DNA from: a virus
Taxonomy: Duplodnaviria; Caudoviricetes
Virus record (IMG/VR): IMGVR_UViG_3300036759_000011
Coordinates: 1-56,120 of that record
DNA length: 56,120 nucleotides
Reading direction: 5' to 3' (one strand)
Shown: positions 7-54,410 of the stretch, one piece after another
Layout: the number at the start of each line of letters is the position of its first letter
Numbering within the stretch: the first letter of the stretch is position 1
Made by a program: the position numbers and the translations under genes
The notes under the pieces: generated by a model
Databases searched by the model: none
What the model was told of the DNA's origin: nothing
Seen by the model: the letters and a program-made list of their open reading frames with translations, nothing else

Positions 7-20
7 CGTACACACGTTCG
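7..20. promoter_or_regulatory. Near-consensus LexA (SOS/Cheo) box
   Basis: CGTAC-ACAC-GTTCG, 1 mismatch to CGAAC-N4-GTTCG. Confidence 0.55.
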
Positions 21-135
21 TAAGAAGGTACACTACTCAATAATACACTAGGTAATATAAGAGAAGAGAGAGAAGAGCGGAATATTGACTGAGTAACGCA
101 ACAAATAGCACAATCGATGCGCGAATTCTCGATGA

Positions 136-149
136 CGAACACTTGTTCG
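136..149. promoter_or_regulatory. LexA (SOS/Cheo) box
   Basis: Perfect CGAAC-ACTT-GTTCG about 24 bp upstream of the -35 at 173, and downstream of a weaker TTGACT-18-CACAAT promoter (85-114). Confidence 0.8.
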
Positions 150-172
150 CCTCAAATCGCTACAGAAAGGGC

Positions 173-201
173 TTGACAATGATCCGTACTTCCGCTATTA
201 T
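173..201 (+). promoter_or_regulatory. Sigma70/SigA-type promoter
   Basis: TTGACA-17bp-TATTAT. Confidence 0.65.
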
Positions 202-388
202 TCTTCTCACCGGGGTAATCATCTTCCTCGGAATGAAGTACAACACGGCCAAAGCAGCACTTGACAAGAATCTTAAGCAGGATTCGGTCATCGCGTGGTG
301 TCTGTATGAGCAGAATACACAGAAGCCTATGAAGTGTGTTGACCGGTCGCTTGACGTGATGGATGTGTACGAGCATCCCAACAACTAA
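179..388 (+). CDS. Small membrane-anchored hypothetical protein
   Basis: AGAAAGGG SD before ATG 179; N-terminal hydrophobic helix. Confidence 0.6.
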   Translation: MIRTSAIILLTGVIIFLGMKYNTAKAALDKNLKQDSVIAWCLYEQNTQKPMKCVDRSLDVMDVYEHPNN

Positions 389-405
389 CGGGAGAACAAA
401 CAACC

Positions 406-882: not shown

Positions 883-892
883 AATCAAACAA

Positions 893-1326: not shown

Positions 1327-1355
1327 TTGACAACTCGCCTCGGATGTGCTATGCT
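1327..1355 (+). promoter_or_regulatory. Sigma70/SigA-type promoter
   Basis: TTGACA-17bp-TATGCT with extended -10 TG. Confidence 0.85.
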
Positions 1356-7666: not shown

Positions 7667-8133
7667 CTTCAAGTGCTGACAACTTAGTAGAGTGGGCAAC
7701 GGACCTTTACGCTCTAATGTACGTAGAATCGAAAGTCAATGATTATGGCGAACGTGTGTTCGAGGGAAAGGTAACAGATCTGTTCAAGCACTTAGATGTG
7801 GGTATTGGGAATTATACTCCTATCCGCCAAGTCTTGGTAGAATCGGGAGCCATCGTATTCCAGCAACGTGGGAACCGGATGCAACCATCTGTCATCGAGC
7901 TTCGCGGCGCAGAAAAAATTTCGGCCGAACCCTTGACACGGGCGCGGCGAGCCGCTATAGTGAAGCTACAAGACGTTGACCGGCGGCTCGCGGCGGTCGA
8001 AAACTGGAGAGAGACAACGGGAGGTATCAATTTAGGAGAAGCACTAAGATCGATGGAACTACGGTTAACCAGGCTAGAGGAACTAGCCACAAACGGGAGA
8101 AACGAAGTTTCCCCACAAAACGAAAGGAAGTAA
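7663..8133 (+). CDS. Hypothetical protein (possible winged helix plus coiled coil)
   Basis: ATGA overlap; helical/beta pattern, coiled-coil C-terminus. Confidence 0.7.
   Translation: MTSSADNLVEWATDLYALMYVESKVNDYGERVFEGKVTDLFKHLDVGIGNYTPIRQVLVESGAIVFQQRGNRMQPSVIELRGAEKISAEPLTRARRAAIVKLQDVDRRLAAVENWRETTGGINLGEALRSMELRLTRLEELATNGRNEVSPQNERK
7749..7762. promoter_or_regulatory. LexA (SOS/Cheo) box inside a coding sequence
   Basis: Perfect CGAAC-GTGT-GTTCG about 170 bp upstream of the 7933 promoter. Confidence 0.65.
7933..7961 (+). promoter_or_regulatory. Sigma70/SigA-type promoter (intragenic)
   Basis: TTGACA-17bp-TATAGT with an upstream A/T tract. Confidence 0.8.
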
Positions 8134-11966: not shown

Positions 11967-12476
11967 ATGGCAAGAAAGCAGTCCGCAATCGTTACGTGTG
12001 ATTGTCCCGGTTGCAAGAACTTCGGAGAAGTAGAAGATCTGAAGTATTCGCCTCCAGAATGGTACAAGATTTTCATTATCAAGCAAGATGGCTTGACTGG
12101 GGGTAGCTACAATAGCTTTGATATCTGTTCCTTGCCTTGCATGGCTGTGTGGGCAGGTGAGCGTGAGATGGCTCTCAATGGTACCGTGATTTCTCCTCTC
12201 CCAGTTACGGTTGGTGAGAATGGCCGCAAGAAGAGTCATCAAGCGGGAGCTAAGAATAAGAGCATGATCCTTAAGGCTATTGAAGAGTCAGATCATCCAC
12301 TCACCACCAGAGAGCTTGTGGAAATTATCGAAATCAAGCAAAGCTCGATTGATAGGCACGTTAGGGTTTTGGCCGATGAAGGGAAGATCGTGATTACTGA
12401 AGGTGTAGGCCAACGGGAGGGCCGCACATACACAGTTCCAACAGGCGTGGTTGTAGATGAAAAGATTGAAGGATAA
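11967..12476 (+). CDS. Zn-finger plus winged-helix DNA-binding protein
   Basis: CDCPGC..CSLPC; PLTTRELVE...SIDRHVRVLADEGKI. Confidence 0.75.
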   Translation: MARKQSAIVTCDCPGCKNFGEVEDLKYSPPEWYKIFIIKQDGLTGGSYNSFDICSLPCMAVWAGEREMALNGTVISPLPVTVGENGRKKSHQAGAKNKSMILKAIEESDHPLTTRELVEIIEIKQSSIDRHVRVLADEGKIVITEGVGQREGRTYTVPTGVVVDEKIEG

Positions 12477-12594
12477 TTTTCACTTCTTCTTGCAAGACGG
12501 AAAGCACATCTACTTGTGCTATCTCGAACCAATGCCAAGATTTCCCACGCTGTACGTTGTGCGTGATACTAAGCTAGGAGTCAAGCAGAATTGA
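12466..12594 (+). CDS. Possible small hypothetical protein
   Basis: 42-aa ORF with TTG start overlapping the upstream gene. Confidence 0.35.
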   Translation: MKDNFHFFLQDGKHIYLCYLEPMPRFPTLYVVRDTKLGVKQN

Positions 12595-12651
12595 AAGCTT
12601 GGGGAGTAGGTGGACAACCTAGTCGTAACGGGCGCTGCTTATTCGACACTG

Positions 12652-12837
12652 ATGAGTGAACCCGTGCTTACTCCCCTTAATCACAAATCGATAGAACGCA
12701 TGTTCGCAAGATACCAGGAACCTAGTAGGAACCTACTAACAAGTGCCGAACGTCACAAGAAATCGCTAAAATCGATAGTCGCGTGGCTAATCAAAGAACT
12801 GCCTATACCGTGGTATAGTCCTCGTCTGACCCCTTGA
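12652..12837 (+). CDS. Possible hypothetical protein
   Basis: ORF overlapping regulatory elements. Confidence 0.3.
   Translation: MSEPVLTPLNHKSIERMFARYQEPSRNLLTSAERHKKSLKSIVAWLIKELPIPWYSPRLTP
12693..12706. promoter_or_regulatory. Near-consensus LexA box
   Basis: AGAAC-GCAT-GTTCG upstream of promoter elements at 12811-12862. Confidence 0.6.
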
Positions 12838-12862
12838 CAACAGACGCCGTTTCTGCTATGCT
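12834..12862 (+). promoter_or_regulatory. Sigma70/SigA-type promoter
   Basis: TTGACA-17bp-TATGCT with TG; a second TGGTATAGT extended -10 at 12811-12819. Confidence 0.85.
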
Positions 12863-12899
12863 AAAGGCACAGTAACTCGGAGAGAGGAAAGGAGGTACT

Positions 12900-13637
12900 T
12901 TGCTCAATACCAAGAGCAAAGAGTTGCTTGTGGAGGCTAGAGAGCATTTGAAGCTAGCCGATACAAGGCAGACTCTAGCAGACAGTTCCAAGTGGGATGC
13001 TGCTAGTCTCATCTGGAAAGCCTACAAGGAAGAAAATGCTACTCAAGTAGAAATCGCTGGTATGGTAGGCGTCTCTCAAAAAACGGTAAGCAACTATGTC
13101 CGTATGGTAGAGATGTATCCCGAGAAAGAAGATAGGCCACCGTTTACGGAGGCTTACTATGCCGTGGCCGGTGGTTCCCCAATGGAGAAAGAGACACAAG
13201 TTCTCAAGAGAGTTGCAGAGAAGAATCCCGAGAAGATCGCAGCTATTGTAGCTAGTCAACCGAGAGTAGCTAAAGCAATCGCGCGTAATCCTGCAACAAA
13301 GGATAGCTTGGAACGTGGCAAAACTGAAGTCATGCTTGAGCAGATGACCAAGGATGCCAAAGTTGAGCGTGAGAATATAAAGAAGCTCTTTGCAGCCAAA
13401 GTCAATGAACCACCGATTGGCGGAAGAACATTCAACTTCTTGGGAGATATGTCCCTTGCAGAAGGAAAGCTCACCAATCTAACAGACCTGATTATTCTTT
13501 CTTGGAAAGATGAGGCTCCTCTAGCTTCAGAGGAAGATCAAGCAATTGCCAAAGAGAGCATGATTCAAGCGTATACCGAATGCTTGAGAAGGTTCCTCGA
13601 AGCAACCAAAGGTGTTCCGGATTTCCAGGAGGCGTAA
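12900..13637 (+). CDS. HTH DNA-binding protein
   Basis: AAAGGAGGT SD, TTG start; ATQVEIAGMVGVSQKTVSNYV HTH. Confidence 0.8.
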   Translation: MLNTKSKELLVEAREHLKLADTRQTLADSSKWDAASLIWKAYKEENATQVEIAGMVGVSQKTVSNYVRMVEMYPEKEDRPPFTEAYYAVAGGSPMEKETQVLKRVAEKNPEKIAAIVASQPRVAKAIARNPATKDSLERGKTEVMLEQMTKDAKVERENIKKLFAAKVNEPPIGGRTFNFLGDMSLAEGKLTNLTDLIILSWKDEAPLASEEDQAIAKESMIQAYTECLRRFLEATKGVPDFQEA

Positions 13638-13639
13638 TC

Positions 13640-14119
13640 ATGGCTCTGACACGGGAAGAGATCATTAGAATCTATGATGCCAGAAAAGCAAAGAGAAAGA
13701 CCTACAGTAAATCGATCATCGAGGTTGCCTTTGCTATCAAGAATCTAGTTGATGGCCCCGATCCGTTTCATGGATCAATCAGAGACATTGCAATAGCTCT
13801 CGATATTCCGTATCAGAGAGTAAGTGCAGCGCTAACCATGACAAGAACTACCTTCTGGATTAATAACGTAGGGTGGAGCTTTCCTTACAGTAAAGGAAAT
13901 TCCGAGAGACTCTGGTTCACAATCGATAGAGACGAGCATGTTCCTGAAGCTCTCCGTAGAATCGATTACAGAGTCAGCCATCTAGTTGGTTGGCTTAAGA
14001 GAGTAGAAGCACAGAATAGACTCTGTGGCAAGTTGAACGAGTCTCCGCTCATGGAGAGGAAGATCACAAGCGCAGCAATGAATATTAAACGGGCCATCGA
14101 GGATCTGGAAATGGCTTAG
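13640..14119 (+). CDS. HTH-containing hypothetical protein
   Basis: AGGAGG SD; SIRDIAIALDIPYQRVSAAL. Confidence 0.7.
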   Translation: MALTREEIIRIYDARKAKRKTYSKSIIEVAFAIKNLVDGPDPFHGSIRDIAIALDIPYQRVSAALTMTRTTFWINNVGWSFPYSKGNSERLWFTIDRDEHVPEALRRIDYRVSHLVGWLKRVEAQNRLCGKLNESPLMERKITSAAMNIKRAIEDLEMA

Positions 14120-14132: not shown

Positions 14133-14159
14133 GTGGGGAGTGAGCCGCACACTCCCCAC
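14133..14159 (+). terminator. Terminator-like hairpin
   Basis: GTGGGGAGTG/CACTCCCCAC stem after the gene; weak U-tract. Confidence 0.5.
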
Positions 14160-14172
14160 GAACGCTTGTTCG
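14159..14172. promoter_or_regulatory. LexA (SOS/Cheo) box
   Basis: Perfect CGAAC-GCTT-GTTCG about 26 bp upstream of the -35 of the replication-operon promoter. Confidence 0.8.
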
Positions 14173-14259: not shown

Positions 14260-15516
14260 GTGACTCACCAAATGACAGATAGCAAAAGCCCTGCTATCTG
14301 GCAAGCGCCGCAAATACCAAGCAAGTGGGATATAATCCCAATTCACAACAGCGACAGAGCGTCGTTTAGACGTTGCCGTCGTTATTGGGATTGGAGTAGT
14401 CCCTCAAGACATAACCTCACTGTACGTGCAGACGTACATGGTATCAATCCTAATCTCTGGTTCGGTACTGGCGTGCATTATGCATTGCAGGCGTATTATA
14501 CGCCAGGTCTGCGCCGTGATCCAGTAGAGGCATTTAAAACGTGGTTCCACATACAATGGTACGGTGGAACAGTAACGGAAGATTGGCTTGATCTAGTCTA
14601 CGATCTTAAGCCGCAAATGAAGCCCGACGGGCTTTTCTTTGTTCGTGGGCTAGAAGATATCCTTCCTGATCCAGACCACGATTTTTACGAGAGCCTCAAT
14701 GATCTTGGCATTGGTATGCTTGAAGCATACAAACGTTATGCCAACCAAATGGATGGCTTTGAGGTCCTCGTAGCTGAGCATGATTTCTCAGTCCCTATCT
14801 GGGATTACGAGAATAATTGCATCCTCAAGCGCATGGATACGCGCGTGGATTCTCCCAACGCTGGTAAAGTGTTGGAGGTTCATGCGCGTGGTCGTATGGA
14901 TGCTATCTGGCAGAAGCCTAGTGGCAAGATGGGCATAATGGATCACAAGACTGCCGAGAAGATCGGTGAGGAATACTTCGAGAAGCTAGAAACAGACGAG
15001 CAATGTACATCTTATCTGTGGGCGGCAGAAATTGAGGCCCAATACTACGACCTTCCCCACAAAGGGGAACAAATGGAGGAAGTAATCTATAATGTCCTAC
15101 GCAAAGCCGCCCCACGTCCACCAACTATTGTACGTGGAGGACTATTCTCGGTCAATCGTAACGAAGAATCATGCACTTACGATATGCTCATGGAGTGGAT
15201 CACACAGAACGAAATTGACATTTCATCCCTGTCAGAAAAGCACCAAAACTACATAAGCTGGCTGAGAGATGTAGGAGATGAACAGTTTATTATACGTAAG
15301 CTGGTGCGTCGTAATCGTCATCAACTCCGCAACGCTGGCATACGTTTATATCTTGAGGCGCTCGATATGCTCGGAAATCCTCGTATATACCCTAATCTCT
15401 CTAATAGCTTTAAGTGCCTCGGTTGTGCTTTTCGTGCTCCTTGCCTAGCTAAAGAGTCGGGCGCTGATTGGGAGTTTCTGATAGAAAACAACTATACGGT
15501 CAACAAGGATCGATGA
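14260..15516 (+). CDS. Cas4/RecB-like PD-(D/E)xK exonuclease
   Basis: RCRR near the N-terminus, GRMD, DHKT, QCTSY, C-terminal CxxCxFxxxC. Confidence 0.85.
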   Translation: MTHQMTDSKSPAIWQAPQIPSKWDIIPIHNSDRASFRRCRRYWDWSSPSRHNLTVRADVHGINPNLWFGTGVHYALQAYYTPGLRRDPVEAFKTWFHIQWYGGTVTEDWLDLVYDLKPQMKPDGLFFVRGLEDILPDPDHDFYESLNDLGIGMLEAYKRYANQMDGFEVLVAEHDFSVPIWDYENNCILKRMDTRVDSPNAGKVLEVHARGRMDAIWQKPSGKMGIMDHKTAEKIGEEYFEKLETDEQCTSYLWAAEIEAQYYDLPHKGEQMEEVIYNVLRKAAPRPPTIVRGGLFSVNRNEESCTYDMLMEWITQNEIDISSLSEKHQNYISWLRDVGDEQFIIRKLVRRNRHQLRNAGIRLYLEALDMLGNPRIYPNLSNSFKCLGCAFRAPCLAKESGADWEFLIENNYTVNKDR

Positions 15517-15662
15517 TTCCGCCTATTTGTAATAAGTGTAAGCGATTCGCAGTTCGTGACGAACCTCGCAAATGGTGGATTTGTTCCGGGTGTCTTGCAA
15601 TTATCACAGACGAGAACATCTATTACGCATTCAAGCAGTATTGTGAAGATCCAATCAATTAG
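15513..15662 (+). CDS. Small Zn-ribbon protein
   Basis: CNKC..CSGC; ATGA overlap. Confidence 0.65.
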   Translation: MIPPICNKCKRFAVRDEPRKWWICSGCLAIITDENIYYAFKQYCEDPIN

Positions 15663-15668
15663 AGGATA

Positions 15669-16109
15669 ATGCCTAGTGAAAAAGGTTACAGATCAACCTT
15701 CGATCCGTTAGTAGTTAACACGGCGGATCTGAAAATAGTCCTCGAAAGGTTCATCATAGATTTCAAAGCTAGGCACGATGGCAAGGTCAGAATTCACAAG
15801 AGAGTTTACGGTTCGGTTGGTGGATACGAAGAGAAAGGATGGGAAGATAGACTAGATATATCTTCTCAAGAAGGTTACGTAAGCTGGATATGTAGAGAAA
15901 CGGGAGTGTCACCAAGAAGATTGTGGGGCATTCTGCATCTACAATCAAAGCACACTAGTTTGGATTTGGCAGATCAAATCTTGCAGGGATTGGAAATGAC
16001 ATACGTTTATCATAACGGTGAGGTGCCCGTCATTCCCAATCCCCGCTGGAATCAGGAGAGATGGATCAAGTGGATGAGCACCAGAGGCTTGTGCGATGGG
16101 TCTGACTAA
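15669..16109 (+). CDS. Cro/XRE-like HTH protein
   Basis: ICRETGVSPRRLWGIL...SLDLADQIL. Confidence 0.6.
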   Translation: MPSEKGYRSTFDPLVVNTADLKIVLERFIIDFKARHDGKVRIHKRVYGSVGGYEEKGWEDRLDISSQEGYVSWICRETGVSPRRLWGILHLQSKHTSLDLADQILQGLEMTYVYHNGEVPVIPNPRWNQERWIKWMSTRGLCDGSD

Positions 16110-16521
16110 AGAAGAAATCGATAGACTCCTAGCCAAGAAACGGGAGAAAGAACGTGGGAAAACTCCTCACCAGCATACGGAATATCGTTCGCAACAAAAA
16201 GGCCCACTCCGATGGTACGAACACTCAATGCCGTGTTCTAACCATGCAGGTTACAGAGGTGGAGGGTGTGGTTCACCGACATATTGTAGAGTCGAAGGAG
16301 CGCCGTTGTGTATGATGCATGCGCTTCGGAGACTTAATGAACTAGTATTGGAGATGGATAAAAATGCCCAGGCGCGCATATTCCAAAGGGAGCAACAAAG
16401 CCCGAGCATCTATGAAGAAGCAATACGGCGCCAAGAAGGGGACACAAGTATTCTACGCAACAGCGAACAAACACGGGAAGGGGAAAACACGAGCAGCCAA
16501 AGCCAACTCGGTCTTTTCTAA
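16096..16521 (+). CDS. Zn-finger protein with MGLTKEEIDRLLAKK N-terminus
   Basis: Cys/His cluster; N-terminus identical to the 7352 ORF. Confidence 0.75.
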   Translation: MGLTKEEIDRLLAKKREKERGKTPHQHTEYRSQQKGPLRWYEHSMPCSNHAGYRGGGCGSPTYCRVEGAPLCMMHALRRLNELVLEMDKNAQARIFQREQQSPSIYEEAIRRQEGDTSILRNSEQTREGENTSSQSQLGLF

Positions 16522-16537
16522 GGGAAGAAAACGTTAA
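16364..16537 (+). CDS. Small highly basic phage protein overlapping 16096..16521
   Basis: GGAG SD; MKKQYGAKKGTQVFYATANK matches a recurrent small phage protein pattern (from recall). Confidence 0.7.
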   Translation: MPRRAYSKGSNKARASMKKQYGAKKGTQVFYATANKHGKGKTRAAKANSVFSKGRKR

Positions 16538-16647
16538 GTGATCTATGGAATGTACTAGACCGTCTAACGGATATTTACCCGGCGGCGGTGCTCCTAGTAA
16601 TAGTGCTAATGATAATTATAGCATGGGACATACGACGCCGCAGATAG
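16534..16647 (+). CDS. Possible small membrane protein (no canonical start)
   Basis: Frame encodes ...YPAAVLLVIVLMIIIAWDIRRRR*. Confidence 0.4.
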   Translation, partial: LSDLWNVLDRLTDIYPAAVLLVIVLMIIIAWDIRRRR

Positions 16648-16662
16648 AGAGGTTGGAATCTA

Positions 16663-17493
16663 ATGACTCAAGTCGATGATACTGACGATCTTCGTGAGTC
16701 GCTGCAAGTTCAGTCGCCTGATGAAGTGGTTGATTGGCTCAACGTCCTGATCTACGGTGATCCCGGTGCTGGTAAAACATGGCTAGCTGGAACAGCAGAA
16801 GATCATCCAGACACTAACCCTGTGCTGGTTTTGGACGTGGAGGGTGGCGTTACTACAATTCGGCACAGGAAGGTAGATGTAATTCCTGTTCGGTCTATGC
16901 CACAAGTCGAGAAGATTTATAACAAGCTTTATCACTCTATCGAGAATGGCAGGATCTACTACAGAACAGTCGTACTGGACTCACTCACTGAGCTTGCTGA
17001 TCTAGATATGCGTTTCATTATGAAGGAAGCGTATGAGCGCAACCCTGAGAAGGTAGATATTGATGTACCGTCTCAGCGTGAGTGGGGAAAGAACAGAAGC
17101 CACATCAGAAGGATTGTTCGCGCATTCCGCGATCTTCCTTGTCATGTGATTATGACTGCTTCTGTAGCTACCATGCAGGAGGAAGGCCAGCCCACAAGAT
17201 ACTTCCCCGGATTCGCTGGCAAGCTTCGGACTGAAGTGCCGGGATTCATGGATATTGTGGGATACCTCTACTCTGAAAATAAAACGGGGGTGATTAATCG
17301 CAAGCTTCAAGTGGTCGGTACACGCAGAGTACAGGCTAAGGATAGAACTTCCACGCTTGGCGGAAGTTTGGAGAATACCACTATCTCCGAAATTTGGAAT
17401 CACATCATTAGTGGTACACTTAATCCATCAGCGGTGCATTCCGATGACAGCGAAACGTTGCCAGAGGAGTCCATTGAAGCGACCGCCGCTTAG
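16663..17493 (+). CDS. AAA_24 / Sak4-like ATPase (single-strand annealing recombinase)
   Basis: YGDPGAGKT Walker A, LDVEGG, VVLDSLT; adjacent to DUF669. Confidence 0.88.
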   Translation: MTQVDDTDDLRESLQVQSPDEVVDWLNVLIYGDPGAGKTWLAGTAEDHPDTNPVLVLDVEGGVTTIRHRKVDVIPVRSMPQVEKIYNKLYHSIENGRIYYRTVVLDSLTELADLDMRFIMKEAYERNPEKVDIDVPSQREWGKNRSHIRRIVRAFRDLPCHVIMTASVATMQEEGQPTRYFPGFAGKLRTEVPGFMDIVGYLYSENKTGVINRKLQVVGTRRVQAKDRTSTLGGSLENTTISEIWNHIISGTLNPSAVHSDDSETLPEESIEATAA

Positions 17494-17515
17494 CAGGTAG
17501 TAAAAAGGAGAGAAC

Positions 17516-18010
17516 ATGTCAATTGGCCCCCTAAACCTTTCCGACGCTGATCTATCAGGTTTCGAGCCTCTGAATCCGGGTCGGTATAACGCTGAAGTGT
17601 TCGAGATTACTATGGACGCTACCAAGCGTGACGGCAAAGTTCCTATGGGTACACGGATGATGAAGATTCAATTCAAGCTCATGGATGAGAGCGTGATTAA
17701 TCGTCGTGTGTGGACCCAATACGTCATTCCTCCCGAGGATCATCCCAAGGAAAAGCGTGAGAAGATGAATGGTATGATTGTTCGCTTCTTCATCGCTGTT
17801 GGTGATCCCGAGGAGACTGTCAGGAGTGGTAGTTTCGATCCAGATTTTGAGGACTACAAGGGTCGTCCTTGTGTAGTGATTGTTGGCAAGGAACCTAAGA
17901 AAGATCAGAACGGAAACATCATCGAAGGTGAATTCAATAATCCTGTCAAGGGAGTGAAAGCAGCAGGATCTATTGTCACCACTGGCGGTGATGATGGTGG
18001 CCTCCTTTAG
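17516..18010 (+). CDS. DUF669 single-stranded DNA-binding protein
   Basis: FEPLNPGRYNAEV N-terminus; acidic C-tail; context. Confidence 0.8.
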   Translation: MSIGPLNLSDADLSGFEPLNPGRYNAEVFEITMDATKRDGKVPMGTRMMKIQFKLMDESVINRRVWTQYVIPPEDHPKEKREKMNGMIVRFFIAVGDPEETVRSGSFDPDFEDYKGRPCVVIVGKEPKKDQNGNIIEGEFNNPVKGVKAAGSIVTTGGDDGGLL

Positions 18011-18028
18011 CTAGCTAAGCTAGCCAAG

Positions 18029-18066
18029 ATCGGGGCCATGCTCTAGAGCAGGAGTGTGGCCCCGAT
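18029..18066 (+). terminator. Hairpin (terminator or processing site)
   Basis: ATCGGGGCCATGCTC/GAGTGTGGCCCCGAT. Confidence 0.55.
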
Positions 18067-18081
18067 ATATTTGGAGGTTCG

Positions 18082-20217
18082 TTGATTGCTAAGAGTGAAT
18101 TACGCAAGCAATTCTTTGAGCTACTGTTTAAGGATTACGAGGGCTTTATCTGTTTCGCCACATCTGAAGCAGCAGCGCCGAAAGTAACTTTCAGGCAGCA
18201 CTTCTTCAAGTGGCCTACAGACCACACAAGAGTAGAAGAGTTTTTGCTGCATCATGAGCAGAGATATAATCTCTACTTCTGTATTAATCTCCTCTCCAAG
18301 ATGGAGAGGCGTAAAGAATTCTGTCTGGAATCAGACATAGTTTGGGCTGATCTAGATGAGAAGAATCCAGAAGAAATCGAGGACATTCCCCCACAAATCG
18401 TCATTCAGTCATCTCCTGGCAGATGGCAAGCCTTCTGGCGTCTAAGTTCGAGAATCCCACCATACGAGGCAGAAGAATATTCTAGGCGCGTTGCTTATAA
18501 ATACAAGGCTGATTCGTCGGGCTGGGATCTAACCCAGCTTTTTCGTGTTCCGTTTACTAGAAATCTCAAGTATACAGACAAGCCACACATTACAGTTGCT
18601 AGAGCTTTTAGCGCCGAAGCGCCAGCTAAACTCTTTGAGCTTCTCCCGACAACCATCCACAAGAATCAGGATGGCTCGGAGATGCCCGATGCTTCCAAAG
18701 ATCCTACATCAATCATTGAGAAGCATAAGCCACTTCTACGTCAGACAGCCTTTGAGGCTCTCTTCACACAGGAGCTAGAACTAGACGCAGATTGGTCAAA
18801 GACTCTATGGAGACTCATCCACGAATGTTTCAAGGTGGGGATGACAGCAGAAGAAGTTTTTACTGTCGTTCGTCATGCTTCCTGCAATAAATACGAGCGT
18901 GATGGTAGGCCAGTTGAGCATCTATGGAGAGAGGTCATCAAAGCCAGCAAGAGTTACGTTGGTGGCGAACCCTTGCCAGAGATGTTGGTTATGCCTCAAC
19001 TTGTTTCTGATCCCCAAACCGAAACATTCGTAGATGAGTACATGGATTGGGCCTGTCGAGCTACGGACGCCCCAAGAATCTTCCATGAGCTATGTGCATT
19101 CATAGCTCTGAGTGCTATAGTATCATGCTCGGTTAGACTGGAAACCAATGCAGGGCCAATCGTTCCAAATCTGTGGGCTTTGATTCTTGGTGAGTCTACG
19201 ATCAGCAGAAAGACCACATCTATGCGTTTGATAGTCGATATTCTTCAAACGTTAGATAAAGAGCTAGTGGTAGCCACAGACGGTACAGCAGAGGGAATCC
19301 TCACTGGTCTGACGAACAGACCCAATCGCACTTCGATCTTCTGGAAAGATGAAGTGTCTGGATTCTTTGAGGCTATGAATCGTAGAGACTACATGTCGGG
19401 TATGCAAGAAACACTTGCAGCCTTGTATGATGTGCCTCCCTGGTTCAAGAGGACTCTACGCAAAGAAACATTTATCATTGAATCTCCCGCATTCATAGTG
19501 CTGGCCGGTGGAGTCGTTGATAGAGTTTATGAGTCAGTCACAGAAGGATACGTCTTGTCCGGATTTTTACCAAGATTTCTGGTAGTAACGGGAGAAGCGG
19601 AAGAACGTAGACCGATGGGGCCACCAACAGAAGAAGGAATGAACAAGAAAGCCAAGATCGTAGCTAAGCTAGCAGATATGTATGAGCATTATGCTTCTGA
19701 TGTGACCATGAAGATTGCTGGACAGAAAGTTCAGATGCCACCGAGGATTAGGGCTCAACTCACTAAAGAAGCTTGGGCTAGAAACACAGAGATAGAAAAC
19801 ACAATGATTGAAGCCGCGAAGGATTCCCTCGTAAGGAACCTCGCTCTACCGACATTTGAAAGAATGCACCGTAGTCTACTCAAAATGGGAGTAATATTAG
19901 CTGCATCCAGGCAGGTACCTATTGACGATCGTATCGAAGTAGAAGATCAGGATATAGTGAATGCGGCTCATTACGTCCAGATTTGGGGTAACTGCTCAAT
20001 TCAGTTGATTATGAACGCCGGAAAGAAACAATCGGAAAAGCTCCTAGATAAACTCCATAGATCTATCGAGAACCATCCTGGAATTTTGCGCGGTCAGCTT
20101 ATGAGACACTTCAAGCTGTCTAAGCGAGAAGCTACGGAATATCTGGATACTCTCGAAGATCGTGGTATGGTAAGGAGAGAAACCCGTGGTACCGGATCGG
20201 CATACTGGGTAACATGA
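18082..20217 (+). CDS. RepB-type primase fused to DUF3987-like helicase
   Basis: WADLD, SSPGRWQAFW, RVPFTRN; GESTISRKTT, WKDE, GFLPRFL; C-terminal wHTH. Confidence 0.85.
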   Translation: MIAKSELRKQFFELLFKDYEGFICFATSEAAAPKVTFRQHFFKWPTDHTRVEEFLLHHEQRYNLYFCINLLSKMERRKEFCLESDIVWADLDEKNPEEIEDIPPQIVIQSSPGRWQAFWRLSSRIPPYEAEEYSRRVAYKYKADSSGWDLTQLFRVPFTRNLKYTDKPHITVARAFSAEAPAKLFELLPTTIHKNQDGSEMPDASKDPTSIIEKHKPLLRQTAFEALFTQELELDADWSKTLWRLIHECFKVGMTAEEVFTVVRHASCNKYERDGRPVEHLWREVIKASKSYVGGEPLPEMLVMPQLVSDPQTETFVDEYMDWACRATDAPRIFHELCAFIALSAIVSCSVRLETNAGPIVPNLWALILGESTISRKTTSMRLIVDILQTLDKELVVATDGTAEGILTGLTNRPNRTSIFWKDEVSGFFEAMNRRDYMSGMQETLAALYDVPPWFKRTLRKETFIIESPAFIVLAGGVVDRVYESVTEGYVLSGFLPRFLVVTGEAEERRPMGPPTEEGMNKKAKIVAKLADMYEHYASDVTMKIAGQKVQMPPRIRAQLTKEAWARNTEIENTMIEAAKDSLVRNLALPTFERMHRSLLKMGVILAASRQVPIDDRIEVEDQDIVNAAHYVQIWGNCSIQLIMNAGKKQSEKLLDKLHRSIENHPGILRGQLMRHFKLSKREATEYLDTLEDRGMVRRETRGTGSAYWVT

Positions 20218-20834
20218 TTATTGCATTTACAGGTAAAAGAGGTAGCGGCAAGAGCACGGCCGCTGCTTATCTCATAAAAGAGCATGAGTTTGAGTTGCGA
20301 GCATTTGCAGACCCACTAAAGAAATCGTTTGCTGCGCTTTTCGATATTCGCTATCATGAGATTGAAAAATTCAAGAACGATCCAAACACGTTCATAGAGA
20401 TTAGAACAGTGGATACATCTTACGAAAATGAGTATCTATCTGGGCCAGTCATGACTTTCCGTGAGGCACTACAGCGTTATGGTACTGAGGCTCACCGTGA
20501 TATCTTTGGTGAAGATTTTTGGGTAGACTTAGCTTTGCCACTACCTCCTGTGGGATTCTATGTAGGCCGAAAAATCGTCATCCATGATTGTAGATTCCTG
20601 AATGAAGCTTATCGTGTAAAACAATTGGGAGGCTATGTAATTGACATTAAGCGGCCCCCCTCAGACCAACCCCAGCACAGGGGGTGGGAGAATCATGTCA
20701 GCGAGAGTGAAATGGATAATATCCCGAAGGATGTTGTGATAAAGAATGACGGAACTATTAGTGACTTATATATCAGAATCGAAGCAGTTCTCTCAACAGT
20801 TCTTGATTACGTCGGGCATGAGCGCACAAGTTAA
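20214..20834 (+). CDS. Deoxynucleoside monophosphate kinase
   Basis: GKRGSGKST, FADPLK, REALQRYGTE, DCRFLNE, HVSE. Confidence 0.9.
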   Translation: MIIAFTGKRGSGKSTAAAYLIKEHEFELRAFADPLKKSFAALFDIRYHEIEKFKNDPNTFIEIRTVDTSYENEYLSGPVMTFREALQRYGTEAHRDIFGEDFWVDLALPLPPVGFYVGRKIVIHDCRFLNEAYRVKQLGGYVIDIKRPPSDQPQHRGWENHVSESEMDNIPKDVVIKNDGTISDLYIRIEAVLSTVLDYVGHERTS

Positions 20835-21033
20835 TTATTACGAGAAGAAGTATGAGGAATGGTTCGAGAAGCACACAAACACTTCTCGATGGCATCCGCT
20901 CAGGAAACACAAAGCTAAGATCGAGTACGAGTATTATCTCAGAATGATGATGGATACAATCCAGATCGAGAAAGAAGAGTTTGCGGAGTATCTGAGGGAG
21001 AGAGAAGAGCAAGGCCATGCAGCCAAAAGCTGA
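20818..21033 (+). CDS. Hypothetical protein
   Basis: Packed ORF. Confidence 0.6.
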   Translation: MSAQVNYYEKKYEEWFEKHTNTSRWHPLRKHKAKIEYEYYLRMMMDTIQIEKEEFAEYLREREEQGHAAKS

Positions 21034-50604: not shown

Positions 50605-51947
50605 TAGAAGAGATTGTACTTCGCGTTTAGATAATCGACAGTGGCGTTTCTTTCGGTATCATTCAGAGCACGGTTATACACCAAAACCTCAGCCACGTCG
50701 CACTTCGCTGGGAAGGTTTGGTCATCATTCCTGATACCAAGTGCCAGACCCACCAATCCATTAGTACCAGCATTCCCTGTCGTTTTAAGAGTTTTATTCT
50801 CCCAAACATTCGTTGTGGCGTCGCCACCAAGCATCACACTCATACACGTAAGCGGCATGGGCCAGTTTGAGGCACGGTTATAGGTGATATCTGTCCCACC
50901 AGCCCACATATTCACTTTGTTAGTATTGTCAGCATGGTAAAGCAGAGGTGGCCCGCCATTCCCGGAGAACCAAACCTGAGTAACATTCCCACCAGACGTT
51001 TGGGACACTACGATAAAAACCGTCACAGGTGTGGCGTAATTCAGACCGATCGCATCAATGCCCTTACTCGGATCGCAAAAGAGAGAATCATTGACTCCAT
51101 CAAATCTGACTACTTTACGACCTGTATCAATGGCAAGTAAAGGCTGCTTGGTAGCATTAGTTTGTGTAAGATGATGCCCATAACCAGATAGATCCAACCA
51201 TTCTGCTATAGGCGTGCCATCGGCTCTAGGAATATGACTAGCGTCAGCCCAGAGCCCCAAGCTAGAATCCCGCACAGGAGGGAGGCTGCTGGTGAAAGCA
51301 TCAGGAATATATGTAGCTGCGCCAGGCCCGCCAATCCATCTGTATCTGGCGGTTATTCTCCCAATATGACAGTTAGCACCCTTGTTATATAGAATTGGGT
51401 ACCACCAAGGCTCAGTAACAGTTTGTTGTGGTGAAGTTTGCCACCCAGTAGAAAATCGCTTGTAAACGGTTGGCAATTCTGGTACTGAAATCTCCAAGCC
51501 AATATTAAGAGGGGTGGGACTTAGGAAAGCTTCATCAGGAGTCATGGGATACCAATTTTGAGCTACTTCGGCATTACTATGATTACCTGAATCTCCATGC
51601 CATCTGATATCAATATCGATCTTTTCCTGGAAACTGAATCCCATCGCAAGCGCAGTATACAGATCGGGCCTTTTAATTTTAATAGGAGTCATCCCATAAT
51701 CATTGGGATCAACTCCTCTTAGCCCGACCCATCCCGAGATATAAAGCCAAGCACTTGGGCTTCCTTGGCTTTCCATTTGCCTAAAGCCATCAACTCCTGC
51801 ATATGTAACACGAGGCTTTGTAACCCAAATCTGCTTAGCAAGATTCCAGTAGCACCGCTCAAGTGGCAGAGATGGATCAATACGGACGTGCCCGACAGCC
51901 CCATCATCAGTAGGAGCACCAAGTCCGCTAACAGTGCTGGCTATCAC
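50604..51947 (-). CDS. Putative virion adhesin with C-terminal LamG/concanavalin-like domain
   Basis: LWADAS..WLDLSGYG..RFDGVND..AEVLVYNRAL..YLNAKY; GTG start overlapping the upstream TAG. Confidence 0.75.
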   Translation of the reverse strand: MIASTVSGLGAPTDDGAVGHVRIDPSLPLERCYWNLAKQIWVTKPRVTYAGVDGFRQMESQGSPSAWLYISGWVGLRGVDPNDYGMTPIKIKRPDLYTALAMGFSFQEKIDIDIRWHGDSGNHSNAEVAQNWYPMTPDEAFLSPTPLNIGLEISVPELPTVYKRFSTGWQTSPQQTVTEPWWYPILYNKGANCHIGRITARYRWIGGPGAATYIPDAFTSSLPPVRDSSLGLWADASHIPRADGTPIAEWLDLSGYGHHLTQTNATKQPLLAIDTGRKVVRFDGVNDSLFCDPSKGIDAIGLNYATPVTVFIVVSQTSGGNVTQVWFSGNGGPPLLYHADNTNKVNMWAGGTDITYNRASNWPMPLTCMSVMLGGDATTNVWENKTLKTTGNAGTNGLVGLALGIRNDDQTFPAKCDVAEVLVYNRALNDTERNATVDYLNAKYNLF

Positions 51948-53890
51948 TAACCAGCACCAATCCAACGCAGTTTCAGGTTAGTATCGAGAACTTCGCCACT
52001 CCCGACACTACCGGAAGGCATTTTTCCTGCCATAACACAGATCAGACTGTGCGCTGTGGGAGTAAATGGTAGATCAGACCAATCTGCGGCCTCAGCCCAG
52101 GTGAAGTGTCTCTCATCACTAGCCAGACCACCAGGATCGGTAGTGCCAGTCAGGCTAGCACTAACGCCTAAGCCTCCCGTTAGTGGTGCTGTGATAGGTG
52201 CAGTACCTTCACCAGAGTTATACTGGAACCAATATGGAGCAATCGTAAGCGCCTTGCTGCTATCAGGTGTAGGCGCACCATTCATTTGACTAATCAAATA
52301 CTCCTGCAAATGGAAGCCAGCAGCGTAAAACTCGCCTGCAAATTCAATATCAATGGGCATCATACCGAACCCACCAGGCTGTCCCTGATAAACCATTGCG
52401 CCTACGGGGATTGTTCCCTTGCTCCCAGATGTGCAAGTACACCCAGTAATGTCGTTAGTTCCAGTATTAATCCCCGTATATGTGATATAATTGTCACGGA
52501 TCTGAATAGTCCCACTCGGAGAAGTTAGTGGATAAGCCGCGTGACCCTCTCCGACATATGTTACGACACTAATTACGCCCGTTCCACCAGTAAAAGCGGC
52601 GCTACTCAGGTCAACTGAGGTGTCTAGATGGCTAAACCACTTGCCATACGGCACCGCATTACTGAATTTACAGTACTGAATGAGATTAGCGCCGCTCTTG
52701 TCACTCAGATCCATAGCCCAAGTATCTGCTTGGACCAATGCATCAAAGGGTTCAGTCTCCCACCAACTCTTATTAGCGTTCCAAGTCAGATCAAGGAAGG
52801 CATCGATTCCCACCGGACGACACACCCCCGGCACACCATCAGTCTTATCGGTACTATTCGCGTTCAACGCGGTGCGCGTTGCCCCGAAATAAACCGGCAC
52901 AGAGCCCGAGGGGAACGAACCAGTCTTGTTATTCACAGATGGAGCGGTAAAACTGTCCGCAGCGTTGCCCGCAGCGTCAGCAATCCACGGCGCACTTCCT
53001 GGCTTTGTATATGTTACCGTAACTGACTCTCCTGCAAGCACGCTCGCACCCAGCGTAAGCGTGACAGTATTCGTTGTAGCCACAGCAGCCGTTACCGCCC
53101 TATTACCCGAACCCGCTCCCGTTACTGCAAATGCCCCGATCGGCGCAGTTGTAGTATTTAGATTCTCGCTAAAGGTAATAGTGAGTGTAGTTCCGGCGCT
53201 ATTGACACTCAGGGCAGTTGGATACGGGGTGATCGTATCCGGAGCCGTGCCAGTCCCGCTATTAATCGCCGCAATCGAAAAAGACGCTACGTCATTCAGT
53301 GCAACATCTTCCAGCACAGGATCGGCACCAGGCTTATTATACGTCAGTACCAGATAAGTACCTGAGACGACCGGGCCGGCATACGCCAGACTAAGTGTAT
53401 TAGCCGTAGGCGCAGTAATCGCCGTGATCGTCTCGTTAAAGGTGAAGGCGGTAAGCAGGCTAGCAAGTTCAGGACCCGTGTATGCTCTCAGGTTCTCACT
53501 GAACGTAAGCACTACATGCGTGTCATCTGCTACTGCACTTGAGGGGAGCGGAGGAAGTACATCTGGCCCACCACCGTTACCACTGATAGTCAGGTTAAAC
53601 TGTTCAGGCGTTCTTTGCTGCGTAGTCGGTTCATACACGGTTTCAATTAGGATGATGCTTTGGCCTGTGGGGGATATCACATAAGTGGGTGCGGGAGGTT
53701 GTGTAGGCACGAACTCATAACTGAATCCCTTGCCAGGCTCGATAGGCATACCGATGCTAGTCGTGACGTTAATGTCACCCACGTAGACAGGGCTAGCATT
53801 GTCCTCAGGATTAAGAATCACCAAGTTAACGACAGTAGAGACTGCTGTTTTCTCGTTAGCAGTTAGAGCTACTGATCGCTGTGTAATCAT
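51947..53890 (-). CDS. Putative virion fibre/adhesin with two SwmB-like Ig repeats
   Basis: Two repeats TFSENL...TYxKPG...DxAxN...SF. Confidence 0.7.
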   Translation of the reverse strand: MITQRSVALTANEKTAVSTVVNLVILNPEDNASPVYVGDINVTTSIGMPIEPGKGFSYEFVPTQPPAPTYVISPTGQSIILIETVYEPTTQQRTPEQFNLTISGNGGGPDVLPPLPSSAVADDTHVVLTFSENLRAYTGPELASLLTAFTFNETITAITAPTANTLSLAYAGPVVSGTYLVLTYNKPGADPVLEDVALNDVASFSIAAINSGTGTAPDTITPYPTALSVNSAGTTLTITFSENLNTTTAPIGAFAVTGAGSGNRAVTAAVATTNTVTLTLGASVLAGESVTVTYTKPGSAPWIADAAGNAADSFTAPSVNNKTGSFPSGSVPVYFGATRTALNANSTDKTDGVPGVCRPVGIDAFLDLTWNANKSWWETEPFDALVQADTWAMDLSDKSGANLIQYCKFSNAVPYGKWFSHLDTSVDLSSAAFTGGTGVISVVTYVGEGHAAYPLTSPSGTIQIRDNYITYTGINTGTNDITGCTCTSGSKGTIPVGAMVYQGQPGGFGMMPIDIEFAGEFYAAGFHLQEYLISQMNGAPTPDSSKALTIAPYWFQYNSGEGTAPITAPLTGGLGVSASLTGTTDPGGLASDERHFTWAEAADWSDLPFTPTAHSLICVMAGKMPSGSVGSGEVLDTNLKLRWIGAG

Positions 53891-53899
53891 GACAAGAGG

Positions 53900-54208
53900 T
53901 TACTTGGTAGTAGAGGGAGCTTGCAGTTCCTTAATCAGATTCTTGATCGGGTCGCCATCGTCCTTCGCATCGTTAATGGCATACTCGATAACTGCCTTAG
54001 CCGCAGACAGTCTTGTGCTCTCGCTGTGTGCGTTGTTAGCAAGCCACACTACTTGTGCAGCTGCGGCTGCTGCCTGTGTCTTGAAGAAGTCTCTGGTAAG
54101 CTCTTCTACATTTTCAGGCACGCCATTCTTACTCAGCTCGTATTCTGCTTTGATGGCTTTTTGATAATTTTTAAGCTCTTCTTGCAAGTTTTCATCGTCT
54201 AGAGCCAT
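53900..54208 (-). CDS. Terminase small subunit candidate
   Basis: First gene of the late operon; AAGGAG SD; STRLSAAKAVIE helical motif. Confidence 0.6.
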   Translation of the reverse strand: MALDDENLQEELKNYQKAIKAEYELSKNGVPENVEELTRDFFKTQAAAAAAQVVWLANNAHSESTRLSAAKAVIEYAINDAKDDGDPIKNLIKELQAPSTTK

Positions 54209-54380
54209 TCGTGGACTCCTTCGGTTTCAGGATTGCTGTGATTTGTAAGCCCTTCTCTCGCGTGCGCGCGTGGAGACGTACTGTGACCCGGAAATCGGCT
54301 CCGAGGCCGGGAGACGGCTTGTGGTGAACGCTGGGGAGGCATCGCGCAGGTGGGCTCGTTCACGGCCGAGGAGCCATGAA

Positions 54381-54410
54381 CGAACATACGTTCGTAAGTA
54401 CGGGCGTTCG
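54381..54410. promoter_or_regulatory. Tandem LexA boxes downstream of the putative late promoter
   Basis: Perfect CGAAC-ATAC-GTTCG (54381-54394) plus AGTAC-GGGC-GTTCG (54397-54410). Confidence 0.75.

Follow-up and report, generated by a model that had tools for sequence, protein, structure and literature searches.

Temperate phages of the coliphage 186, CTXphi and SPC32H type carry host LexA sites in their promoters and SOS induction triggers their lytic programme, with one or two sites standing before a single switch gene; these phages also have a repressor and a system for integration or replication maintenance. The genes under LexA control in these phages are antirepressors or lytic genes (PMC9437464). 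In the betatectiviruses GIL01/Bam35 lysogeny is held by host LexA (PMC4551915; PMC6182141). Pili- and flagellotropic phages of Alphaproteobacteria are rich in sites for the cell-cycle response regulator CtrA ('lytic deferment'), and the virulent Bacillus phage phi29, a small podovirus, has promoter-associated sites for the host master regulator Spo0A that suspend the lytic cycle, the signal being sporulation (PMC9437464).

The window, by which we mean the whole 56,120-nt stretch analysed, belongs to an uncultured soil myovirus of 56 kb with sheath, tube and baseplate genes and replication genes of its own. Its LexA-type boxes and the features around them are as follows, with strand where assigned.

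7..20, box with one mismatch, CGTACACACGTTCG, spacer ACAC
136..149, perfect box, spacer ACTT
1327..1355, plus strand, sigma-70-like promoter match P1327 (TTGACA-17-TATGCT), with a homologous promoter in the relative L005
1433..1446, perfect box within ORF 1393-1611, codons M-T-N-T-R-S
7749..7762, perfect box within ORF 7663-8133
11967..14119, plus strand, lineage-specific DNA-binding cassette (P0004, P0005, P0006)
12693..12706, box with one mismatch, AGAACGCATGTTCG
14159..14172, perfect box abutting a terminator-like hairpin (14133-14159)
14260..23470, plus strand, replication/recombination operon downstream of box 14159
53900..54208, minus strand, first late-operon gene, weak match to small terminase
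54381..54394, perfect box where the minus-strand late operon and the plus-strand early genes diverge
54397..54410, degenerate second box with two mismatches, AGTACGGGCGTTCG, one perfect GTTCG half-site kept
54424..54431, minus strand, TATACTTA block within a stretch that L005 shares with the window; 13 nt separate the block from the second box

Compared with coliphage 186, CTXphi and SPC32H, this phage has 7-8 sites over six loci and no lysogeny module. It shares with GIL01 the 14-bp CGAAC-N4-GTTCG type of site and boxes at early and late control regions; its full box with an adjacent half-site recalls dinBox1/dinBox1b downstream of the GIL01 P1 start (PMC4551915), and its tandem pair recalls the tandem boxes of the late promoter P3 (PMC6182141). 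Both phages are without an integrase and a dedicated CI-type repressor. However, GIL01, a tailless plasmid-prophage, has a linear 14.9-kb genome with terminal repeats and relies on a protein-primed PolB and on gp7, gp1 and gp6 as co-factors, whereas the 56-kb myovirus has no terminal repeats, replicates with PolA and a primase-helicase, and lacks homologues of these gene products. GIL01 has no perfect box, its proven operators carrying 1-2 mismatches, whereas the phage has five perfect boxes and more boxes overall; and GIL01 lysogeny is known, whereas the phage is compared here from sequence alone. As in the CtrA-site phages, a lytic-type tailed phage shows a skewed, promoter-associated excess of host-regulator sites that evolved in a particular lineage, is absent from its relatives, and is proposed to time lysis rather than give lysogeny, although CtrA binding and regulation have been experimentally shown and the sites here are predicted (PMC9437464). 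The parallel with phi29 differs in signal, DNA damage against sporulation, and in phage type (PMC9437464).

Perfect CGAACNNNNGTTCG sites occur at 136, 1433, 7749, 14159 and 54381, the five positions named in the earlier sequence-only reading. In 100 dinucleotide-preserving shuffles the mean was 0.03 and none reached five. Allowing one mismatch adds 7-20 (CGTAC...) and 12693-12706 (AGAAC...), and the resulting seven sites were again not reached in any of the 100 shuffles (mean 1.01, maximum 5). That reading had listed 7, 12693 and 54397 as near-perfect copies, which holds for the first two but not for 54397 with its two mismatches. Taken alone 54397 is background, as the window contains 18 two-mismatch sites, and it is counted only because it starts 2 nt past the perfect box 54381 and keeps one perfect half-site. 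Among all 5-nt-arm palindromes with spacers of 0-8, CGAAC-N4-GTTCG ranks first (p = 4.7e-9, unbiased count). The half-sites alone are at background (58 CGAAC and 55 GTTCG, ∼55 expected), and inverted half-sites at spacings from 0 to 12 number five at N4, one at N10 and none elsewhere; the enrichment is confined to the inverted arrangement with a 4-nt spacer. The spacers of the seven sites (ACAC, ACTT, ACAC, GTGT, GCAT, GCTT, ATAC) all have a purine first and a pyrimidine last, as had been claimed.

The motif is identical, in arms and N4 spacing, to the published LexA consensus of Bacillus and Actinomycetota, as the earlier reading had recognised: CGAAC(n)4GTTCG in B. subtilis (PMC4551915), TCGAAC(N4)GTTCGA in M. 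tuberculosis (PMC3381160) and tCGAAC-N4-GNNCGa in S. venezuelae (PMC9380542). Validated Streptomyces boxes include CGTAC-type variants like that of box 7 (PMC9380542). Chromosomal SOS regulons of Actinomycetota and Bacillota have the same consensus and similarly varied box positions, from about -200 to inside the coding sequence, with a few dozen sites per genome compared to about one perfect box per 11 kb in the phage (PMC3381160; PMC9380542). Of 22 half-site flanks, 10 fit A-CGAAC...GTTCG-T and 4 the actinobacterial T...A, a preference that we counted against a LexA reading. The window also holds hints to its host, namely an Rpf-like transglycosylase whose look-alikes among bacterial clusters belong to Actinomycetota, a DUF6011 protein, a CHAP/LysM lysin, and TerL, whose nearest cultured counterparts are those of Arthrobacter and Microbacterium phages (31-34%). 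As judged from these genes, the probable host fits a phylum using the CGAAC-N4-GTTCG box.

Intergenic DNA makes up 5.7% of the genome by our gene model, and it contains five of the seven sites (P = 1.2e-5). None of the seven lies between 14172 and 54381, an interval comprising the whole late module and replication genes, in agreement with the reported absence of boxes from the structural genes. The boxes had also been placed within about 200 bp of a predicted promoter. This is literally true but weak evidence, with some ten sigma-70-like matches present in the early region. The -35/-10 cores of the strong matches are all free of boxes, which is likewise counted against LexA. Box 7 lies just 3′ of the stop of gene 55850-56098, provided that the contig ends abut. 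Box 136 stands between two promoter matches, 22 nt past the -10 of P85 (85-114), which is weak, and 23 nt short of the P173 -35; the ATG (179) of a small membrane-protein ORF follows 30 nt after the box. Box 1433 is 78 nt past the -10 of P1327. Box 7749, in an ORF whose product has homologues in genomes G001 and G010, is 171 nt upstream of the P7933 -35, and box 12693, with the winged-helix gene 11967-12476 on one side and the HTH gene 12900-13637 on the other (423-nt gap), is 128 nt upstream of the P12834 -35; both distances count against a LexA reading. Box 14159 precedes TTGACT (14198)-17-TGC-TAAGGT by 25 nt and the operon start at 14260 by 88 nt, the operon encoding a PD-(D/E)XK nuclease, AAA_24, DUF669, a primase-helicase, a dNMP kinase and UDG-PolA. 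Box 54381 lies 173 nt from the first late gene, in a gap bordered by the end of that gene at 54208 (minus strand) and the early genes from 54661 (plus strand). On the late strand the TATACTTA block contains a -10-like TATACT (TGG-TATACT in the window), from which we infer a late promoter -10 that would put the boxes at about +10 to +39.

The one close relative, L005 (TerL 85% amino acid identity), is a 13.9-kb fragment with two perfect and two one-mismatch boxes, and in the shared region all four window boxes have counterparts, with box order and neighbouring homologous genes both preserved (5096 for 54381, 3350 for 7, 3106 for 136 and 682 for 1433). Box 3350 is perfect and has the ACAC spacer of window box 7, the spacer of 3106 is identical to that of 136, and a comparable second half-site follows two of the L005 boxes. 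The flanking DNA has diverged to the point that blastn aligns only three short stretches of the early region. Box 1433 is in coding sequence and box 682 in the 5′ leader of the same homologous gene, in each case after homologous promoters; the box has thus shifted from leader to coding DNA, showing site turnover within one regulatory unit. With position kept against diverged flanks, the boxes are evolutionarily maintained. On the other hand, twelve more distant syntenic relatives with the same promoter type (385,155 bp) contain no perfect box, and their 13 one-mismatch sites compare with 17 for a reversed control pattern, indicating that LexA control is not needed by the phage group. These box-free relatives, and the count of two box-bearing genomes, one of them the 13.9-kb fragment, are counted against LexA as well.

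On this evidence we consider it moderately probable that the boxes are lineage-specific operators for a host LexA of the 'Gram-positive' (Bacillota/Actinomycetota) type. The gating of early, replication and late programmes by host LexA, as first proposed, has consensus, placement and conservation in L005 behind it; it is a prediction from sequence and faces a rival in a phage-encoded regulator.

That main rival, which we regard as unlikely, holds that the boxes are operators of a phage winged-helix regulator, most likely P0004, else P0005 or P0006, sharing the LexA target by chance or by evolution like GIL01 gp6. A phage LexA-family protein acting at LexA-like sites has precedent (PMC6182141). 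P0004 (11967-12476) joins a Cys-rich N-terminus to an ArsR-like winged helix (HTH_5 27.8 bits; sub-threshold LexA_DNA_bind 13.9 bits, E 0.047) and has only two relatives among 5.8 billion proteins; P0005 is an HTH protein, and the P0005-P0006 genes are flanked by boxes 12693 and 14159. The cassette has no homologue in G001, G009 and G010, which are also box-free, so that the box-bearing lineage is the only one seen with it and a phage regulator could be the binder; this co-occurrence rests on a single genome because L005 does not cover the cassette. However, a random operator would match the ten LexA positions and the spacing in only an estimated ∼1 in 10^4 cases (1,024 arms × about ten spacings), and a true LexA homologue is not encoded, as PF01726 scores at most 13.9 bits on any window protein and 51.6 bits on the positive control, GIL01 gp6.

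The fuller original claim, that the boxes hold a GIL01-like LexA prophage or carrier state, is less likely again. It draws on the same box evidence, with boxes before early, replication and late units, and its premise of an integrase-free myovirus was borne out: the sheath, tube and baseplate genes are present, and six-frame searches of the window found no integrase and no S24 repressor, as in GIL01 (PMC6182141). Yet the same searches found no resolvase, ParA or protelomerase, the window has no terminal inverted or direct repeats and no homologue of GIL01 gp1, gp6 or gp7 (tblastn E above 0.3), and PolA with a primase-helicase is not protein-primed replication. A search of 185,579 species genomes with TerL/MCP patterns, which have limited sensitivity, found nothing of the phage group beyond a 35% MCP match. 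Replication genes downstream of box 14159 turn up in contigs from soil RNA libraries, and the box-free relatives have the same genome plan. A latent (dormant) state is not supported.

Very unlikely is a LexA sponge, in which each copy of the replicating phage genome offers 7-8 strong sites that titrate away host LexA, so that the SOS regulon comes on although the DNA is undamaged; the boxes would then not regulate phage genes in cis. Several boxes are indeed poorly placed for a repressor blocking a promoter, and five perfect sites in 56 kb is a very high density when the entire M. tuberculosis genome has 24 sites within one mismatch of the 16-bp consensus (PMC3381160). But the box after the P1327-type promoter stays in the same leader/5′ region in both phages despite its shifted place, and the tandem pair keeps a fixed 12-13 nt from the conserved TATACTTA block in both, which point to cis action; the literature searched gave no precedent for a sponge. 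Least credible of all are RNA hairpins for processing or stability, or nuclease, packaging or replication sites: most boxes are in transcribed early DNA and each can fold a 5-bp stem with a 4-nt loop (-4.9 to -6.6 kcal/mol), but 5 to 22 of 200 shuffles fold equally well for four of five boxes, the stems are invariant and never covary as the loops vary, with ACAC and its complement GTGT both on the transcribed strand, which points to a dimer recognising double-stranded DNA, the sites are dispersed over six loci unlike pac, cos or an origin, and phages usually avoid restriction sites rather than enrich them.

Under the host-LexA operator reading, one lineage of an otherwise lytic-looking myovirus would have acquired and maintained boxes in the regulatory DNA of several units. 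Boxes 7, 136 and 1433 would serve the early genes around the junction of the contig ends, 12693 the HTH cassette, 14159 the replication/recombination operon, and 54381 with 54397 the region where late and early genes diverge. LexA dimers would bind, in most cases beside a promoter or just downstream of one, and keep these units repressed until RecA-stimulated LexA cleavage, triggered by DNA damage or by the phage's own attack on host DNA, releases them. Stable lysogeny is not implied. The arrangement suggests that the phage ties its own gene expression to the host DNA-damage alarm, and coupling to the SOS state may thus serve to defer or time its development.

The window holds five perfect copies of CGAACNNNNGTTCG (136, 1433, 7749, 14159 and 54381), whereas dinucleotide-preserving shuffles average 0.03 copies and none of 100 reaches five, which confirms the palindromes of the sequence-only reading far above the shuffled expectation. 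Allowing one mismatch adds positions 7 and 12693 and gives seven sites (shuffle mean 1.01; 0/100 shuffles reach seven), so these two copies were rightly called near-perfect; a further copy so called, at 54397, carries two mismatches, as do 17 more places elsewhere in the window, and its position is therefore its sole interest. Among all palindromes with 5-nt arms and spacers of 0–8 nt, CGAAC-N4 shows the window's strongest enrichment (5 copies versus 0.057 expected, Poisson p 4.7e-9); the half-sites themselves occur at background (58 and 55 copies), and the enrichment of the inverted CGAAC/GTTCG pair is confined to the 4-nt spacing. Five of the seven sites are intergenic, though only 5.7% of the window is intergenic in the gene model used (binomial P 1.2e-5), and the remaining two lie within the ORFs 1393–1611 and 7663–8133. 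As had been claimed, the spacers of all seven sites begin with a purine and end with a pyrimidine, and the same is true of the four sites in L005, a close relative of this phage. The Cheo-box consensus has the spacer RNRY, which is present in full in 5/7 window sites.

The window spans an entire IMG/VR virus record (56,120 bp), which is classed as linear with an estimated completeness of 92%, and its genes fall into two strand blocks:

1–26,700 and 54,661–56,098, plus strand: many small family-less ORFs, an SNF2 helicase and three DNA-binding proteins
Plus strand, replication/recombination operon: PD-(D/E)XK nuclease, AAA_24, DUF669, primase-helicase, dNMP kinase, UDG-PolA fusion and HNH nuclease
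Plus strand, after this operon: Rpf-like transglycosylase gene
26,801–54,208, minus strand: myovirus late module with tail fibres, CHAP endolysin, baseplate wedge, tape-measure-like proteins, tail tube, tail sheath, major head protein (MCP), protease, portal and large terminase (TerL)

The DNA polymerase of the operon (21017–23470) joins an N-terminal uracil-DNA-glycosylase-superfamily domain to a 3′-5′ exonuclease and a family A polymerase, with the HNH endonuclease gene following it. On the late strand, two large genes at 50604–53890 (453 aa, a virion structural protein PHROG, and 647 aa with SWM_repeat/Big_5 domains) sit between a small-terminase-like gene and TerL; the corresponding L005 interval is ∼400 nt, so the stretch represents an insertion or a loss specific to a lineage.

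The early region contains eight perfect TTGACA-N17-TAnnnT promoter matches, all plus-strand (173, 1327, 2156, 4672, 7933, 8755, 12834 and 55937) and most with TG or TGC before the -10, and three more distant syntenic relatives that have no boxes (G001, G009 and G010) carry three to five matches of this type each on their early strand. None of the boxes overlaps the core of a perfect match, and with matches named by their start (P85 and so on) the geometry is as follows:

Box 136: 22 nt past the -10 of a weak match, P85, and 23 nt ahead of the -35 of P173
Box 1433: 78 nt past the -10 of P1327
Box 7749: P7933 lies 171 nt downstream
Box 12693: P12834 lies 128 nt downstream
Box 14159: adjoins a terminator-like hairpin and lies 25 nt ahead of TTGACT-17-TGC-TAAGGT

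That each box lies within ∼200 bp of a predicted promoter is thus literally true but carries little weight as evidence, given the lack of core overlap. The boxes may act as a roadblock, by promoter occlusion or in some other way. The perfect box at 54381 precedes the degenerate one at 54397, whose GTTCG is intact, an arrangement also seen after two of the L005 boxes. Near the second box (13 nt away in the window, 12 nt in L005) stands a conserved block whose late-strand reading, TATACTTA, is a -10-like hexamer, with TGG before it in the window. If this block is a late-strand promoter, with a putative start near 54419, boxes 54381/54397 would stand at about +10 to +39.

Other repeated elements occur in the same regions. 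The 9-mer AATCGATAG has four copies, all on the plus strand (12686, 12770, 13921 and 16116; ∼0.2 expected), two of which flank box 12693. Two intergenic stretches between early genes (54860–54900 and 55160–55205) have in common the pattern AACACTCT-N5/6-CTAGAGTGTA after long hairpins, a pattern that could mark either a terminator/promoter unit or promoters of a second type (-10 TAGAGT). The word AAATCG(C/A)T near boxes 7, 136 and 12693 (5 versus 0.36 expected, p 3.6e-5 per single hexamer among 4,096) fails multiple testing and was discarded.

Relatives were collected from IMG/VR by TerL (8 loci) and MCP (16 loci) searches. L005, a 13.9-kb fragment, is the sole close relative among those loci (TerL 85% and MCP 87% identity), and carries two perfect and two one-mismatch boxes, all of them confined to the 5.3 kb of its early region. 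By protein matches it is collinear with the window across the window end and start, indicating that the contig ends are adjacent or nearly adjacent in the real genome. Its boxes have the same order and homologous gene neighbours as those of the window:

L005 5096, window 54381: separating the first late gene from the early genes
L005 3350, window 7: immediately after the homologue of 55850–56098, with an ACAC spacer in both
L005 3106, window 136: ACTT spacer in both
L005 682, window 1433: downstream of a homologous TTGACA-17-TA(T/C)GCT promoter and a common leader start

Since blastn aligns just three short stretches of the early regions, the flanks have diverged while the boxes were kept. The most telling pair is 1433/682: the L005 box lies in the leader, ∼40 nt before the start codon, and the window box lies in coding sequence (codons MTNTRS), the homologous codons of L005 being without a box. 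Read from these two genomes, this is site turnover within one regulatory unit, an argument that selection acts on a function in cis.

Twelve more distant syntenic relatives (385,155 bp in total, three of them 95–100% complete genomes of 56.5–59.9 kb) contain no perfect box, and their 13 one-mismatch sites compare with 17 for a reversed control pattern. Conservation in related phages therefore holds for four boxes at matching places in L005 and does not extend to these twelve, and the box set is specific to one lineage. A TerL scan of metagenome contigs for further box-bearing relatives gave 10 loci, all at 60–67% identity, and the homologous divergent regions of G001, G009 and G010 gave no useful alignment with the window. 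Taken together, the sequence comparisons say that the box set is real and under selection.

Two further elements emerged from these comparisons. G001 (loci L054/L055) has an early-region palindrome of its own, cACTAACCC-N4-GGGTTAGc, in four copies (45374, 49192, 49812 and 50661; p 1e-7), which could form a hairpin or serve as an operator for some other regulator. The non-coding stretch 1692–1817 (∼125 nt; L005 41–166) is 90% identical between the window and L005, where neighbouring proteins are only ∼50% identical; a hairpin within it keeps its ACGCAA loop but differs on both arms (window AGTGG/CCACT, L005 CCACG/CGTGG). The -35 of a promoter match, P1805, marks the end of this conserved stretch, which has no match in Rfam and may be a structured RNA or regulatory element; a 23-nt exact part of it, searched in viral contigs, was found in L005 only.

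The LexA site is given as CGAAC(n)4GTTCG for B. subtilis (PMC4551915), TCGAAC(N4)GTTCGA for M. tuberculosis (PMC3381160) and tCGAAC-N4-GNNCGa for S. venezuelae (PMC9380542). The window motif is identical to the first and to the core of the other two, and its assignment as the LexA box of Bacillota/Actinomycetota thus agrees with published consensus sequences, N4 spacing included. The actinobacterial T...A flanks (TCGAAC...GTTCGA) are largely missing, with 4/22 half-site flanks T/A versus 10/22 A...T; in the published consensus they are weakly conserved (lower case, PMC9380542). Validated Streptomyces boxes are described as spanning -199 to +91 relative to start codons, with CGTAC variants among them (PMC9380542), so the positions and variants of the window boxes are not unusual for SOS boxes.

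A close point of comparison is GIL01, a tectivirus with lysogeny held by host LexA. In our re-scan its proven operators at 185 (dinBox1), 4886 and 4919 have one to two mismatches, and the window sites are nearer the LexA consensus. GIL01 P1 is described with a strong dinBox1 and a half-site, dinBox1b, both downstream of the start (PMC4551915), and P3 with tandem boxes (PMC6182141); at the level of sequence the window is similar in having boxes at early and late putative promoters and a full box plus half-site. In contrast to GIL01, with its LexA co-repressor gp7, gp1 and the LexA homologue gp6, the window has no detectable counterparts (tblastn of gp1/gp6/gp7, best E 0.36, a search that could miss proteins this small). 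The genomes also differ in plan, as GIL01 is linear with terminal inverted repeats and a protein-primed PolB, whereas the window encodes PolA and a primase-helicase, inverted matches between its first 300 and last 300 nt are no longer than 7 nt, and DNA contigs extend over its start. More broadly, LexA co-option is established for temperate phages (PMC9437464) and GIL01 (PMC6182141, PMC4551915), and lytic phages are described as reading a host master regulator in the cases of CtrA and Spo0A (PMC9437464). The window resembles this lytic-deferment type in its skewed promoter-region excess of putative host-regulator sites, which one lineage gained while its relatives did not. In two Streptomyces tectiviruses, scanning of the whole genome revealed no LexA sites (PMC6950372), and the literature searched, which leaves out most subscription journals, describes no lytic-type myovirus with a set of consensus SOS boxes.

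By profile search, no LexA family member is encoded in the window: PF00717 had no match in six frames, and PF01726, which scores 51.6 bits on GIL01 gp6 as a positive control, reaches just 13.9 bits in P0004 and 11.7 bits in the winged helix at the primase-helicase C-terminus. P0004 (Cys-rich N-terminus and ArsR-like winged helix) forms with P0005 (HTH) and P0006 a cassette of DNA-binding proteins at 11967–14119, whose regulator could instead own the boxes as its operators. Boxes stand on both sides of the cassette genes and the cassette is missing from the box-less G001, G009 and G010; relatives of P0004 and P0005 were absent from viral contigs, and among 5.8 billion proteins P0004 has two relatives only (95% and 65% identity). 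A phage operator would, however, have to coincide with all ten LexA positions plus the spacing, and for this reason we hold the cassette regulator to be rather doubtful and rank host LexA above it, leaning on balance, from motif identity, towards the boxes being host-LexA operators. RNA hairpins are unlikely, as the stems reach just -4.9 to -6.6 kcal/mol (for 4/5 boxes, 5 to 22 of 200 shuffles fold equally well), show no covariation, and carry both the loop ACAC and its complement GTGT on the transcribed strand. A chance motif, restriction site, pac/cos site and iteron were all rejected, since the statistics, the spread of the boxes across six loci and their conserved positions speak against them.

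Which host would supply this LexA is hinted at by gene content. Comparison of 40 kb of the window with 50,697 phage records by megablast yielded no match, and the best TerL identity to cultured phages is 31–34% (Arthrobacter and Microbacterium phages), so that by these searches the window has no close cultured phage. The nearest cultured TerL, the Rpf-like transglycosylase (whose bacterial look-alike clusters are Actinomycetota), DUF6011 and the CHAP/LysM lysis proteins hint indirectly at a host in Actinomycetota. The 48% G+C and the strong TG-extended TTGACA-17 promoters would also fit Bacillota, and a LexA box of the CGAAC-N4-GTTCG type is used by both phyla; the box flanks (A...T over T...A) differ from the actinobacterial extension, the endolysin look-alikes are mostly viral, and no WhiB was found in the window. 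Rfam (gathering thresholds) and ARAGORN found nothing in the window. The sole hint of a cyanobacterial host is a sub-threshold NblA (phycobilisome degradation protein) match at 6358–6618 (E 0.0094, 16.8 bits versus a 25-bit cut-off), probably a chance match.

The absence of a recognisable integrase withstood a six-frame search with PF00589 and PF00239 (integrase and serine recombinase) at E up to 1, the controls being positive in 14 and 13 of 14 genomes. The step from there to an integrase-free latent state gated by host LexA is unproven and the latent state is not supported, as six-frame searches with PF00717, PF13614 and PF16684 (S24 repressor, ParA ATPase and protelomerase) had no match where control genomes gave hits, the contig ends bear no inverted or direct repeats, and no gp1/gp6/gp7 homologue was found; P0005 has a sub-threshold ParB-HTH match (22.2 versus a 22.6-bit cut-off). 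A transient deferral, as distinct from a latent state, may still take place. Scans of one genome per species from 185,579 species, using two peptide patterns each and thus of limited sensitivity, found no relative by TerL alignment among 74 pattern matches and one match by MCP alignment (35%, an uncultured MAG). More doubtful still than the cassette regulator would be the full scheme of a contractile-tailed soil phage without repressor, integrase or partition genes, with early, replication and late units under host LexA, that would hold every infection of an undamaged cell in reversible, SOS-released deferral, thereby re-creating the GIL01 type of strategy in a 56-kb myovirus that lacks every GIL01 helper protein.

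Phage DNA is present in six soil DNA runs, and the source sample may be any one of these. In one, window position 1 is the exact end of a long contig, and two short contigs (286 and 150 nt; depths 48 and 21.5 versus ∼31) overlap positions 1–30 and extend past the window start, so that the end looks like an assembly-graph branch and not a physical end. Parts of 1–10000 occur in three soil RNA-library runs. All three have contigs over about 7991–8510, just past P7933, and about 17200–18000 (DUF669 gene); those at 7991–8510, covering the small gene 8137–8463, and 17202–18000 are the deepest within 1–20000, and low-depth pieces fall within 13594–17301. These libraries may contain DNA, their contigs cannot rank genes or show transcript starts relative to the boxes, and uncovered parts of 1–20000 are uninformative. 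Gene 8137–8463 is a paralogue of 574–882, and a single L005 ORF matches both.

Judged on motif, placement and conservation, the box set is probably the host-LexA regulon of a phage. LexA co-option is known among temperate phages that have a single switch promoter, and in GIL01, a small tectivirus. If the reading is right, a genome-wide, selected SOS-box set in a lytic-type myovirus would extend LexA co-option to a new virus class and to the soil habitat, and would supply a DNA-damage analogue of CtrA and Spo0A control, by which virulent phages time or defer lysis through a host master regulator. It would also blur lifestyle calls, as tools that equate the absence of an integrase with ‘virulent’ would miss such behaviour, and the lineage-specific gain (two related genomes with boxes, twelve without) would offer a natural comparison for what LexA control buys a phage.
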